Virus record (IMG/VR): IMGVR_UViG_2908567220_000003
Direction: 5' to 3' (one strand)
Source: a virus
Taxonomy: Duplodnaviria; Heunggongvirae; Uroviricota; Caudoviricetes
Length of the DNA: 61,488 nucleotides
This document shows, one piece after another, positions 20,849-29,140 of the stretch. The position numbers and the translations under genes are program-made. Numbering within the stretch: the first letter of the stretch is position 1; each line of letters opens with the position of its first letter. A model generated the notes under the pieces. That model did not search any database, had not been told where the DNA came from, and worked only from the letters and a program-made list of their open reading frames with translations.

Positions 20849-21002
20849 GCGGGTTATGCGGGTTAGCGGGTTATCTTCGCGTGCTAATTATCTTTTACTC
20901 TTTAATATCAATATGTTAAAAAACAACGCATTTAAATACCAGCCAGAATGTAACCCGCAAGACATTCAAAATAACCCGCAAACACCCCTCAAATAACCCG
21001 CA
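20849..21002. repeat. iteron cluster 1: three tandem GCGGGTTAT repeats, AT-rich spacer, three inverted copies
   Basis: direct copies at 20849, 20858, 20866; inverted TAACCCGCA at 20951, 20972, 20994 with about 21-bp phasing. Confidence 0.7.
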
Positions 21003-21082
21003 AAAACATCCCTGAAAGTAGGTGCCGGTAATACTGAAAATTTATTCCATTAAATGAGCATTGTCCTCTCTCATCCATTCCG

Positions 21083-22744
21083 TTACACACCATCAAACGC
21101 CGCAAGCCGCTCTTTGTGGCTGTCGCTCATATCGAATGCAAATTCCTCATGCTCTGCCTGGAATGTGCCAAACGCCATCAGCGCCGCAACGCTCGGGTCT
21201 ATCTTGTTGGATGATTTTTTCTTGTTCGGCTTGATATTGGCGTTCGCGTCACTCTGCATCACAACATTACTCATTGACCAGGCCAGCACCGGATCACCAC
21301 GATGCACAATCACCTTCCGGTTAACAAAAACTTCGAACGATTTCGCCGCCGGACTGAAACGAAGGTATGTTTGCGGGAACGGCTCCACCTCAAATCCTGC
21401 GCCCTGTAGCTGCGTCCTCAGGTGCGTGGCGTTCCATGTATCGAAGCCCACCAGCCTGATATTGAAATTTTCTGCATCTGCCATGATGTCATCACGGATA
21501 CGGTCATAATCAATGCAGTCACCCGGTGTTGTGCGTATCCAGCCCGCCTTTACCCACTGGCGATAGATGGCGCGGTTTTTATTGGCGGGGTTCTGTAGCT
21601 GAAATTCCGGCAGATAGTGACGGGAAACCAGCATAATCTTTTTACCGACCGGAAAGGCATAGCACACGCTGGAAATATCGCTGGTTGATGATAAGTCCAG
21701 CCCCGCGTAGCACTCCTGCCCGTATAAATCCGCCTCCGCGAACGTTCCGGCGCACTCCGCCCATGCACCGTTACCCATCCACGGCGTAGCCCCCTGACAC
21801 CAGATATTGAATCGCTTGGTGAGCATTTCCACCCACTGCGACGGAATACCCCGCGCTTTCTGGATGGTTGAGGCCAGTTTTTCACGATCGACGGAAACAT
21901 CGATATTGGGATTCGCCTTTATCCACATCGCCGGATCGTCAACCTCGCTTTCATCATCCAGCTCGTAAATCAGCACGAACATGGATTCGTTCACCTCTTC
22001 ACCATCCAGTATCTGGCAGCAATAGTCGTAGTGTTGTTTACAGGCTGAAACAACGTTGCTCCCCGATGTGGTGATGGCAAATAATAACCCCTCCGGACGC
22101 GCCCCCATTCCCAGTTCAAGCGCGGAATAAACCCCGTTGTCAGGGTGCAGGTGATATTCATCCACAATGGCAAGACTCGGGTTTGTACCTTCAATGGTTG
22201 CCGCTTTTGCTGCCAGTGGTTTTAACAGGCTGTTGGTTTTCGGGTGTATCACCTTGTGTGCCTGAATATTTACCCGCTTTCGTAACGGTCGGGATAAAAG
22301 GCACATCTGACGCGCATCATCAAACACGATCCGCGCCTGATCACGACTCACGGCGGCGGTGTAAATATCCTGCTGCCCGTTTTCCATAACCAGAAACCAG
22401 TTAGCCAGGATAGCGGCGACCGTGGATTTGGCATTTTTTCGCGGTACTTCAATGAATGCGCTGGTGTATTTGCGCCGCCCGGTGGCCTTAACCTTAAAGC
22501 CCAGGATGCACGCAAAGGCGAACTGCTGCCACGGCTCCAGCTCAATGGGGCTACCGCGCATTGCGCCTTTTACGTGCGGGCACACCCTGGAAAAGGCAAT
22601 AAACCGCTCCACGACCTCCGGATCGAACGTGTAAAGGGGGTTTTCAAGGTCAGAAAAATACCGTTTAACGGCCTGTTTCAGTCGTTTACAGGCCGTAATT
22701 TTGCCGTTTTTTACGCCTTCTGCGTACTCATGCCAGGCGGTCAA
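21083..22744 (-). CDS. terL: terminase large subunit (satellite copy, intact)
   Basis: 553-aa ORF with ATPase and nuclease regions; track start codon is TTG, overlaps terS end; start uncertain. Confidence 0.85.
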   Translation of the reverse strand: MTAWHEYAEGVKNGKITACKRLKQAVKRYFSDLENPLYTFDPEVVERFIAFSRVCPHVKGAMRGSPIELEPWQQFAFACILGFKVKATGRRKYTSAFIEVPRKNAKSTVAAILANWFLVMENGQQDIYTAAVSRDQARIVFDDARQMCLLSRPLRKRVNIQAHKVIHPKTNSLLKPLAAKAATIEGTNPSLAIVDEYHLHPDNGVYSALELGMGARPEGLLFAITTSGSNVVSACKQHYDYCCQILDGEEVNESMFVLIYELDDESEVDDPAMWIKANPNIDVSVDREKLASTIQKARGIPSQWVEMLTKRFNIWCQGATPWMGNGAWAECAGTFAEADLYGQECYAGLDLSSTSDISSVCYAFPVGKKIMLVSRHYLPEFQLQNPANKNRAIYRQWVKAGWIRTTPGDCIDYDRIRDDIMADAENFNIRLVGFDTWNATHLRTQLQGAGFEVEPFPQTYLRFSPAAKSFEVFVNRKVIVHRGDPVLAWSMSNVVMQSDANANIKPNKKKSSNKIDPSVAALMAFGTFQAEHEEFAFDMSDSHKERLAAFDGV

Positions 22745-23084
22745 GCTCGTCCTCTTCCTCTGTTTCCGGTGGATTTCTGCGGCGGCTTACCGGGTCAAAA
22801 CCCAGCAAAGAAGCCATTTTGATCATTATTCTTTCTGCGTCAGCCTTTGCGCTCAGGGCGGGGTTTCTGCTCTCACTGCCCTGACTGTTAACAATGCTGA
22901 ATCCGCGCGTCGCAAGGTCTTCGACGGCTTTGCGGTATATGGAGTAGTTAACGCAATACAGCTCCAGATTGCTCCAGTCGGCGGGGGTAAGGTCTTCCCG
23001 CCCGGAAAGCTGGCGCGATTTTTCCTTCCACTGCCTGACCGCGATTTCATCCAGGTAAGCGGGGGCTTTTGGTGGTCTTGCCAT
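22728..23084 (-). CDS. terS: terminase small subunit, P27 family (satellite copy)
   Basis: ATG at 23084 (MARPPKAPAYLDEIAV) inside track ORF 22728..23225; between HNH and terL. Confidence 0.7.
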   Translation of the reverse strand: MARPPKAPAYLDEIAVRQWKEKSRQLSGREDLTPADWSNLELYCVNYSIYRKAVEDLATRGFSIVNSQGSESRNPALSAKADAERIMIKMASLLGFDPVSRRRNPPETEEEDELDRLA

Positions 23085-23372
23085 GTTCTTTTTTCGCCCA
23101 ATTATTTTCAAAAAAATTCCCGTGCACAAAAATTTGAGGAGGCGGTCGGTGTCCGGCAGGGACGGTTTCGTCCTGAAAACCTCCCCCACCCCCTCTGACA
23201 GCCTCACCAGCGATTGCGAAAACATTCCATGACCTCGCGGTCACGGTCGGTTAATCGCTTCGGTGTGGTGCGTTCTGTGCGCCCTGTCCTGTTGACTTTG
23301 TGCCCTGTCTCCTGTGTCTTCCATAAGTCACGCTGCCTTATCAGTCCACGTATCAGCCTGTTTTGCTCCTGT

Positions 23373-23813
23373 TCAGTCATCATCGCCATACATCCAGTCG
23401 TTACGATGTGCCGCCCGTTCTTCCTGCTCGCGATACATGCCCGCCTTACGGTTCGCTTTCGTGGCTGGATCTTCCCGTGTCGTCTTACGGTTGTGGCACG
23501 TCTGGCACAATGCCTGGTGGTTCCACTCAGGCCAGAAGAGAACATCACCGCCGCCATTGATGGGAATGATGTGATCCACCACAAGAGCTGGCGTATAAAT
23601 CCCCTTAGCCAGACAACGCACGCATAACGGGTTTTTGCTCAGGTACAGGGCGCGGTATTTGTCCCACTGCCGGGAATACCCACGCGCGCGGCGGTGCCCC
23701 CGTCTGGCATCCTCTGCACGCCATGCAGCCCGCCTGTGCTCTTCACACTTGCCGGACTTCACGCGCTTATTACAGCCCGGCTCAGTGCATCGCCTTAATG
23801 GTTGCCACGGCAT
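23373..23813 (-). CDS. HNH endonuclease (packaging-associated, satellite copy)
   Basis: 146-aa ORF with Cys-rich HNH motifs (CHNRKTT), directly upstream of terS; ATG verified. Confidence 0.8.
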   Translation of the reverse strand: MPWQPLRRCTEPGCNKRVKSGKCEEHRRAAWRAEDARRGHRRARGYSRQWDKYRALYLSKNPLCVRCLAKGIYTPALVVDHIIPINGGGDVLFWPEWNHQALCQTCHNRKTTREDPATKANRKAGMYREQEERAAHRNDWMYGDDD

Positions 23814-28182: not shown

Positions 28183-28227
28183 GTTTCCTCCTGCTACCAC
28201 GATACCAGAAACAGTTAACAACCGTTA

Positions 28228-28512
28228 TCAATTATCCCCTTTTTTTTTCGGGTAGTTCCTGAACATCTCACCGCCAGGTTTCTGTAAGCCCATCCCGGTA
28301 TGTGTGCGGTTTATGGCCTCTTTCAGTATTCCGAAATTATCCGGTATGACTGGTTGGCGCGCTGCCTTACGGATACATTCCGCGCGACGCTTTGCCACCT
28401 GTTCGCGCTCCTTGTCAGTGCTCACCAGCCACATAACATCAGCCCAACGTGCCGCCGCTCTCCGGTACAGCCCTTTAGCCTCCAGTTCTTCCGCTTTGCT
28501 GTCTTTAATCAT
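28228..28512 (-). CDS. PerC-family transcriptional activator-like protein
   Basis: ATG at 28512 (MIKDSKAEELEAKGLYRRAAARW); assignment from remembered PerC N-terminal motif. Confidence 0.5.
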   Translation of the reverse strand: MIKDSKAEELEAKGLYRRAAARWADVMWLVSTDKEREQVAKRRAECIRKAARQPVIPDNFGILKEAINRTHTGMGLQKPGGEMFRNYPKKKGDN

Positions 28513-28527
28513 GCTGTACCTCACTGC

Positions 28528-28953
28528 TTAAAACGGTATCCCGTCCCCGTACGGATCATCGTGCTGGCCTGTCTGTTGTTTTGCCCTGTTCAGTGCGTCA
28601 GTAGCCTGGCCCTGCTGGCCTTTTTTGCCGCCCGGTCGCGCCGTTCGCGCACTGATTACGCTGTCTGCGATGACCTGCCAGCCCTGCCGCATTTCGCCGT
28701 TCTGGCCTGTCCACTGGCTTACCTGCATGTTACCCGCCACACTCACCAGTTCGCCTTTCTGGTGTTTTGCCAGTGCATCGGCCTGTCTGCCAAACGCCAG
28801 GACGGATAACCACATCGTCGCCGTTCCGTCATCTGCCTGGCTGCACGGCAGGGGAACCGCCATACTCGCCATAGCCATTTGTGTCCCCTTGCTGGTGGTC
28901 TTTAACTGCGGGTCAGCCACCAGCCGCCCGTAAGCCGCTATCTGTGCTGTCAT
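28528..28953 (-). CDS. ssb: single-stranded DNA-binding protein (SSB-like OB fold with C-terminal DIPF tip)
   Basis: 141-aa ORF ending GDGIPF, Gly/Gln-rich linker; ATG verified. Confidence 0.65.
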   Translation of the reverse strand: MTAQIAAYGRLVADPQLKTTSKGTQMAMASMAVPLPCSQADDGTATMWLSVLAFGRQADALAKHQKGELVSVAGNMQVSQWTGQNGEMRQGWQVIADSVISARTARPGGKKGQQGQATDALNRAKQQTGQHDDPYGDGIPF

Positions 28954-29017
28954 GCTGTCTGTTCTCCGGTTTTAACGTTGATTGTTACGCTTGTTTACAC
29001 CCTTACGGTGAAATCCT

Positions 29018-29140
29018 GCGGGTTATAATCGCACTTTTGCGGGTTATAACTGCCGTTTTGCGGGTTACGTGCGGGTTACTGATTTCCTTTTTATTCATAC
29101 AGTTAATGCACTTATACACAGGATAACCCGCATAACCCGC
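29018..29140. repeat. iteron cluster 2 (candidate replication origin): four direct GCGGGTTA(T/C) repeats, AT-rich spacer, two inverted copies
   Basis: direct copies at 29018, 29039, 29060, 29071; AT-rich 29081..29120; inverted ATAACCCGC at 29123 and 29132; downstream of primase/helicase gene. Confidence 0.7.

Follow-up and report, generated by a model that had tools for sequence, protein, structure and literature searches.

Two mirror-image iteron modules, probably a split bipartite replication origin, in a capsid-forming phage satellite

A capsid-forming phage-inducible chromosomal island (cf-PICI) lies within a 61,488-nt stretch of Caudoviricetes DNA (IMG/VR record IMGVR_UViG_2908567220_000003; hereafter the window, to which all position numbers refer), and two clusters of a single short repeat are found in this satellite, one directly after the gene for its DUF927 initiator-helicase, Rep, and the other near the island end. 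Both clusters appear to be iteron arrays for the satellite's own initiator, and together they probably constitute a bipartite replication origin made of two mirror-image modules, which are split in this element. The initial annotation of this DNA had already reported two iteron clusters of one motif, and both are present where it placed them; its cluster 2, next to rep, is here renamed module A, and its cluster 1 module B.

The core repeat of both modules is the 9-mer TGCGGGTTA. The window contains 12 occurrences of the pattern GCGGGTTAY, compared with an expectation of 0.89; none of 100 shuffles reaches 12, and 11 of these copies fall inside the two clusters, with one stray at 7239. An extra module B copy, GCGGGTTAG at 20858, departs from the Y of the pattern, and each cluster has six copies, 12 altogether. 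Module A (29017-29141, minus strand) has four plus-strand copies at 29017, 29038, 29059 and 29070 (spacing 21, 21 and 11) and two abutting minus-strand copies at 29124 and 29133, opposed across a 45-bp spacer (29079-29123) with an A+T content of 69%, the window average being 49%. Module B (20848-21002, minus strand), in which five of the six iterons are exact, has three abutting plus-strand copies at 20848, 20857 and 20865, the last of which, AGCGGGTTA, overlaps its neighbour by 1 nt, then a spacer of 77 bp (20874-20950; 70% A+T) and three minus-strand copies at 20951, 20972 and 20994 (spacing 21 and 22). Read in the direction of rep, module A is therefore composed of two abutting iterons (29124-29141), the spacer and four opposed iterons (29017-29078; 11/21/21 bp), and module B of three iterons (20951-21002; 22/21 bp), the spacer and three abutting iterons (20848-20873). 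The clusters had been described as sharing the same architecture, but the arrangement is in fact a mirror image with the abutting and spaced sets swapped: along the numbering, the spaced set comes first and the abutting set last in module A, and the order is reversed in module B.

Module A starts 23 bp past the stop of the DUF927 gene and is followed by the gene for a single-stranded DNA-binding protein (SSB). Module B is located between the stop of the satellite terL (21083), 80 bp beyond it, and the left end of the island, which is about 275 bp away. The two modules stand 8.1 kb apart owing to the capsid and packaging genes that lie between them. When scanned for promoters and terminators, neither cluster gave anything above chance, and an Rfam search of 19000-40500 found no family.

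By its position and layout, module A on its own is an ordinary putative origin of the known kind found in PICIs and in the Staphylococcus aureus pathogenicity islands (SaPIs). The adjoining rep gene (29164-31284, minus strand) encodes a protein of 706 aa with a Pfam DUF927 match (E=2e-46), which also matches the SaPIbov1 Rep (PDB 8tch; phmmer, E=4.5e-14) and Cch (5dgk), the helicase of the staphylococcal cassette chromosome mec (SCCmec); Foldseek, run with a poor Rep model, returned 5dgk and 8tch as the best matches (probability 0.99-1.0). The DUF927 domain and the 8tch match, together with the Foldseek result from the poor model, mark the protein as a Rep-type self-loading helicase. SaPI Reps are self-loading MCM-like helicases in which a C-terminal winged-helix domain binds the iterons (PMC9371898), and Cch likewise contains DUF927 and is related to the SaPIbov1 Rep (PMC7581432). 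The binding sites of SaPI Reps consist of 6-12 iterons that follow rep directly and face each other across an AT-rich centre (PMC9371898), and the same origin layout is found in the E. coli PICI EcCICFT073, where a segment with rep plus ori replicates autonomously (PMC6092414). The present arrays resemble the origins of SaPIbov1, SaPI1 and EcCICFT073 in lying directly 3′ of rep, in the opposed short iterons around an A+T-rich stretch and in an iteron number within 6-12 (PMC9371898, PMC6092414, PMC7581432), as well as in the initiator, a self-loading helicase homologous to SaPIbov1 Rep whose C-terminal region appears to set iteron specificity. Opposed iteron sets flanking an A+T-rich spacer are present in both modules (2+4 and 3+3). 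The position directly 3′ of the initiator gene is held by module A, whereas module B taken alone, being 8.1 kb away, lacks it, although its homologue in the prototype cf-PICI EcCIEDL933 has it. The iteron origin proposed in the initial annotation is supported for module A, which has the position and layout of SaPI and Gram-negative PICI origins and a neighbouring protein homologous to SaPIbov1 Rep. The departure from the published SaPI and PICI origins, which have a single AT-rich centre (PMC9371898, PMC6092414), consists in two mirror-image units (6+6 iterons, two spacers) with a conserved tract of TA-rich sequence, and in the displacement of the second unit by up to 10 kb.

The gene next to module A had been labelled a primase/helicase; the label is better replaced by DUF927 initiator-helicase, as no primase domain is detectable with Pfam in the 706-aa Rep. 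Longer relatives of Rep (918-938 aa) have Zn_Ribbon_Prim and Toprim_3 domains, in a part that is 35% identical to the P4 alpha primase (E=1e-47). Residues 1-125 of Rep, for which no Pfam family was matched, are predicted as a confident alpha/beta fold with a predicted local distance difference test (pLDDT) score of about 85-90 and stand in place of the Zn-ribbon and Toprim of the 920-940-aa relatives.

The link between module B and Rep comes from related elements. Iterons were mapped as over-represented 8-mers in 80 loci encoding Rep relatives, taken from other Enterobacterales species, and the Rep alignment comprised 80 sequences, 78 from those loci plus those of the window and EcCIEDL933. 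An iteron array begins 22-83 bp (mostly 22-31) past the Rep stop in 73 of the 80 related loci, and likewise in EcCIEDL933. About 18 iteron classes are present among the loci, all of them variants of T-R-A-N-C-C-N-N-N, and the class is always shared by both modules of a locus. When the alignment columns most associated with iteron class are considered, 23 out of 24 are located at Rep residues 612-695. At matched core identity, the C-terminal regions are 62-70% identical in pairs of the same class versus 43-59% in pairs of different classes, and class-specific basic hairpin-like segments can be seen in the aligned C-termini. The Escherichia albertii locus (L003) provides the clearest single comparison with the window: the cores of the two Reps are 95% identical and the last 130 residues only 40%, and the iterons have changed from TAACCCGCA in the window to TGGGACAAG in E. 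albertii, in the proximal and distal modules alike. The distal module is there 2.3 kb from the proximal one, and the flank past module B is nearly identical to that in the window. As judged from these alignments, iteron specificity appears to be set by the last ~90 residues of Rep (about 612-695), and there is strong, though indirect, evidence that Rep reads both clusters, because the iterons of both modules change together with its C-terminus.

Co-variation of the repeat with the protein, which the initial annotation had put forward as a check on its proposal, holds across the 80 related loci. The same annotation regarded widespread repeats in the host chromosome as an argument against an origin, and no such spread was found: among 5,426 E. 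coli genomes the clusters were detected in 252 and 357, the median being a single location in a genome, and every case examined had an island context.

The plan of the arrays in the related loci is stereotyped and independent of the iteron sequence. Module A is composed of two or three iterons that abut at a 9-bp period, then 51-73 bp of spacer (mostly 53-65) and two to four opposed iterons at 11/21/21 bp, and its spacers average 80% A+T in 75 loci versus 51% for the loci overall. In module B, two or three iterons spaced by 21-23 bp are separated from two or three abutting ones by 42-95 bp of spacer. For 45 of the 80 aligned Reps, EcCIEDL933 included, the modules are contiguous, with module B normally 20-70 bp after module A and 9-13 iterons altogether, most often exactly 12, whereas for ten of the 80, window included, they are split by 0.3-9 kb; in the island of E. 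coli AH19D088 the distance is 10.6 kb. The orientation of module B relative to module A is constant in every split locus. An attempt to place module B relative to the island ends in the other split loci yielded two weak direct repeats only. Split and contiguous layouts alternate among close relatives (core identity 98%, 94%, 91%, 89% and 86%), so the separation of the modules arose several times, with module B kept each time; it would most simply have come about by insertion of DNA between the modules.

EcCIEDL933 illustrates the contiguous state. The gene set and order match those of the window satellite, the proteins are 57-93% identical and the iteron TGCGGGTTA is identical, yet homologues of both clusters stand side by side in a single intergenic region after the DUF927 gene, so that module B and a small gene are found between module A and the SSB gene. 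Apart from the distance of 8.1 kb between the modules, the window satellite differs from EcCIEDL933 in being inserted in a prophage terL and not at a chromosomal site, and in carrying an IS66 insertion. In a Yersinia pekkanenii locus (L025), three composite origins are present within 6 kb, at -4555, +27 and +1208 from the Rep stop, which suggests either tandem or nested islands or a duplication in the assembly.

Module B is further distinguished by a conserved 20-mer, the TA-tract, 3 bp beyond its last abutting iteron (20825-20844, minus strand; TTTTGTATATATATACGAAA on that strand). Such a tract follows module B at 3-5 bp from its last abutting iteron in 44 of 56 loci regardless of iteron class, and 48 of the 56 have it with at most 7 mismatches to the consensus TTTTGCTTATATATACAAAA, compared with 1.8% of random windows; no TA-tract follows module A. 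It may serve either as a -10-like promoter element or as an unwinding element. Within the module B spacer, a match to the consensus of integration host factor (IHF) at 20906-20918 (plus strand), TATCAATATGTTA, fits WATCAANNNNTTR perfectly. The IHF consensus occurs in 10 of 55 second spacers and in 4 of 75 first spacers, an enrichment that concerns a minority of loci, and the match might at best be taken as a lead. A short motif, TTCTGGCTGG or CCTGGCTGG, is seen just past the spaced iterons of module A in five loci (L003, L012, L020, L029 and L053), and in the window at 20936-20948, inside the spacer of module B.

A mechanism that would fit the two-module layout can be outlined. After induction and excision, Rep would bind both arrays, melt the A+T-rich spacers and then load itself onto the DNA, and the distal module B would still work over 8 kb, whether by being a second origin or by serving module A in cis as a partner through Rep-Rep looping. 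Looping has been proposed for the ori and crr of satellite P4, where both clusters are required in cis for replication.

The initial annotation had likened the two clusters to P4 ori plus crr, and as far as topology is concerned the comparison stands. Two clusters of one iteron are located kilobases apart on a small satellite in both cases, at +23 bp and +8.1 kb from the initiator gene in the window, and in P4, where the repeat positions were taken from the GenBank annotation, with crr 46 bp past the alpha stop and ori 4.7 kb away. Both P4 arrays use one 8-bp repeat, and their units, as in the window, open with two abutting copies at a 9-bp period, after which come opposed repeats. The part of the comparison that concerns an alpha-type helicase does not stand, as the initiator is a DUF927 protein of the SaPIbov1 Rep/Cch type and P4 alpha has no significant similarity to the window Rep in BLASTP (E=0.012). 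Moreover, in crr a 120-bp unit is duplicated in tandem, while each module here is a single unit, and the modules are contiguous in most relatives, which makes their separation optional. Since Rep lacks significant similarity to alpha and crr is a tandem duplication, the likeness to P4 is best described as an analogy and not as membership of the same system.

Several observations weigh against a two-module origin, at least in its simplest form. In 18 loci only module A was seen within the available flank of 1.4-10 kb, which in some cases spanned no more than 1.4-6 kb, so module B may be dispensable, although the spacing of 10.6 kb in AH19D088 shows that module B can fall outside the flank surveyed in such loci. 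The restriction of the TA-tract to module B means that the modules are not equivalent, and module B may have a further role. The structural evidence for Rep is poor: the full model, from a 13-sequence alignment, has a pLDDT of 49 and that of the C-terminal 130 aa, from 57 sequences, one of 41.6, values too low to call a winged helix, and no solved relative of the C-terminal domain emerged from PDB sequences in a profile search. Finally, the island is interrupted in its AlpA/HTH-int region by a 2.7-kb IS66-family element (34297-36995), with HTH_Tnp_1, TnpB_IS66 and DDE_Tnp_IS66 open reading frames (ORFs) and a 14-bp overlap at the junctions, and the island may therefore have lost its inducibility. 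The E. coli 042 reference NC_017626.1 lacks this element, so the window derives from a near relative or a different assembly.

Four other explanations of module B were considered, all of which rank below a bipartite origin. The one that survives best, although it is unlikely, is that module B binds Rep but acts negatively, titrating Rep or handcuffing module A as an array for copy control or incompatibility. Iteron arrays outside the origin do act in copy control in the plasmids P1 (incA) and F (incC), and a shared iteron that tracks the Rep C-terminus would allow Rep to bridge the modules, while the possible relatives with module A only would suit a dispensable regulator. However, incA and incC are plain direct-repeat arrays, whereas module B has the same origin-like anatomy as module A; in 45 loci it abuts module A as one stereotyped 12-iteron unit, which is not what would be expected of a separate control locus; and a brake would be of little obvious use to a satellite that over-replicates after induction.

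An improbable alternative is that module B is mainly a Rep-controlled promoter or operator, in which the abutting iterons overlap the -35 region and the TA-tract provides the -10 element, and which would drive whatever is found past the origin. The fixed distance of the TA-tract from the last iteron across iteron classes and its absence after module A are in line with such a role, and in several loci with the contiguous layout a ribosome-binding site and a start codon follow within 17-88 nt. In contrast, a consensus scan finds no sigma-70 promoter at the site on either strand, the final T that is conserved in -10 hexamers is missing from TATATA, and the RNA downstream folds no better than shuffles (z=0.18). 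Nothing convincing lies downstream in the window either: orf54 (20678-20842), which is not conserved, was dismissed as a gene since it begins within the TA-tract and belongs to no family. In any case, a promoter role would supplement the role as origin and not replace it.

It is very improbable that module B is a packaging site, cos or pac, or a part of one, read by the satellite terminase, as the initial annotation had offered for its cluster 1. Besides the proximity of the module to terL, the suggestion draws on a sequence related to the cos-site of phage phiP27 that begins about 50 bp beyond module B (20700-20815, minus strand). The window, E. albertii, AH19D088 and about 130 further E. coli genomes have in common a conserved stretch of approximately 118 nt directly past the TA-tract, and the intact AH19D088 version matches the annotated cos-site of phiP27, which is positioned between HNH and terS, with 87% identity (E=7e-13). 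The sequence is nevertheless separate from the repeats and decayed in the window, where the cohesive-end core at 20765-20774 reads TGCTCACCTC, compared with CGCCCGCCCC in phiP27 and CGCCCGCCTC in a related island. A better candidate core, CCGACCGCCTCCTCAAATTTTT (23128-23149, minus strand), lies in the canonical HNH-terS gap and aligns with the phiP27 cos region, and the working cos of the satellite is likely located there. The module B repeats themselves have no similarity to a phiP27/HK97-type cos, they co-vary with the Rep C-terminus, the module is also present in islands without terminase genes, and in EcCIEDL933 the homologous module adjoins module A, 8 kb from terL. Two phiP27-type cos-like sequences are thus present in one 15-kb satellite, a decayed one at the island end and a preserved one in the HNH-terS gap.

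Equally hard to credit is that module B is a non-functional remnant of inter-island recombination that travelled with the end of the island at the time the capsid module was gained. Although the element is a mosaic whose end segment (module B, TA-tract and cos relic) is common to non-capsid islands and the adjoining relic has decayed, the exactness of five of six iterons beside that relic suggests that module B is maintained by selection, the ten split loci keep it intact and in unchanged orientation, and the E. albertii iterons have changed in step with the Rep C-terminus next to an unchanged flank.

The island that carries the proposed origin is assigned as a cf-PICI from the RefSeq annotation of the near-identical locus of E. 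coli 042, to which positions 20000-30000 are identical, and from Pfam. It measures ~15 kb and encodes, all on the minus strand, an integrase, AlpA-type regulators, BRO-N, Icd-like and DUF4222 proteins, DUF927 Rep, SSB (28528-28953, the first gene beyond module A), PerC, and the capsid, protease, portal, connector, HNH, terS and terL block (21083-27105) that separates the modules; int, AlpA, rep and its own capsid and packaging genes are therefore all present, and there are no tail genes. The island interrupts the terL gene of a prophage, as is evident when the intact terL of phage PhiR49_2 is taken for comparison, and the left junction is thereby placed at about 20568-20574, within an imperfect 14-nt repeat (20561-20574, plus strand; TTGGTAAGAATATT) with its partner, TTGGTAAAAAAATT, at 38519-38532. 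A search for att direct repeats of at least 10 bp found none, but the right boundary used in it was wrong, and the junctions were settled by the PhiR49_2 comparison. The satellite would disrupt the phage terminase gene until its excision.

The prophage is HK97-like, and the N-terminal part of its TerL reads in frame and without a stop into the satellite integrase, giving a fused ORF of 807 aa (37123-39546, minus strand) with TerL_ATPase, Arm-DNA-bind_3 and Phage_integrase domains. At least 80% of a 10-kb query is covered in 47 E. coli genomes, and among the matches listed (15) all start at query position 1-4, which corresponds to the prophage terL.

The interval between split modules is occupied by different genes in different islands. 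In AH19D088 (L086, 9893-17240), whose iteron is that of the window, three large neighbouring hypothetical genes of 843, 686 and 918 aa are located there. In capsid-less islands with the same Rep family (L022, 13380-15182; L039, 13558-16968; also L037 and L058), a large tape-measure-like protein with TMP_3, Phage_HK97_TLTM or SLT domains is encoded between the modules, alongside ProQ/FinO, Fic and SSB genes, and such genes may represent another tail-related satellite cargo. The order of rep, module A, cargo, module B, TA-tract, cos and island end recurs in AH19D088, a non-capsid island, and by this gene order the window satellite looks like an AH19D088-type framework whose cargo position has been taken by a capsid and packaging module.

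A broader model can be put forward more tentatively, and it is rather doubtful as a whole. In PICI-type satellites of Enterobacterales, the six iterons in each of two mirror-image units would pair off with the six DNA-binding domains of a single Rep hexamer, and the two units would function as a double origin whatever their distance between 20 bp and 10 kb, through Rep looping as in P4. The interval would then be a cargo slot for capsid modules, defence genes or tape-measure genes, with the origin halves as conserved recombination anchors for cargo exchange, and in several split islands, where the distal half is next to cos, replication might be coupled to packaging. In the cf-PICI literature searched for ori, origin of replication and iteron, no replication origin was described, and the double mirror-image 6+6 design, the TA-tract and the recurrent displacement of module B to the far island end by cos were absent from the papers searched.

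PICIs and cf-PICIs are among the most abundant phage satellites and mobilize virulence and defence genes, and the PICI origin has so far been treated as a single iteron block after rep. The natural swaps of Rep C-terminus and iteron among the related loci represent ready specificity pairs. If the bipartite origin is confirmed, it would offer a direct route into the assembly of a self-loading MCM-like helicase at an origin, in particular whether one hexamer forms per module or two, and it would represent a second, independent design of the P4 ori/crr kind with a different helicase. It would also supply a sequence rule, namely a shared iteron, specific to the Rep C-terminus, in a pair of mirror-image arrays, with which satellites could be delimited, incompatibility groups predicted and cargo slots found.

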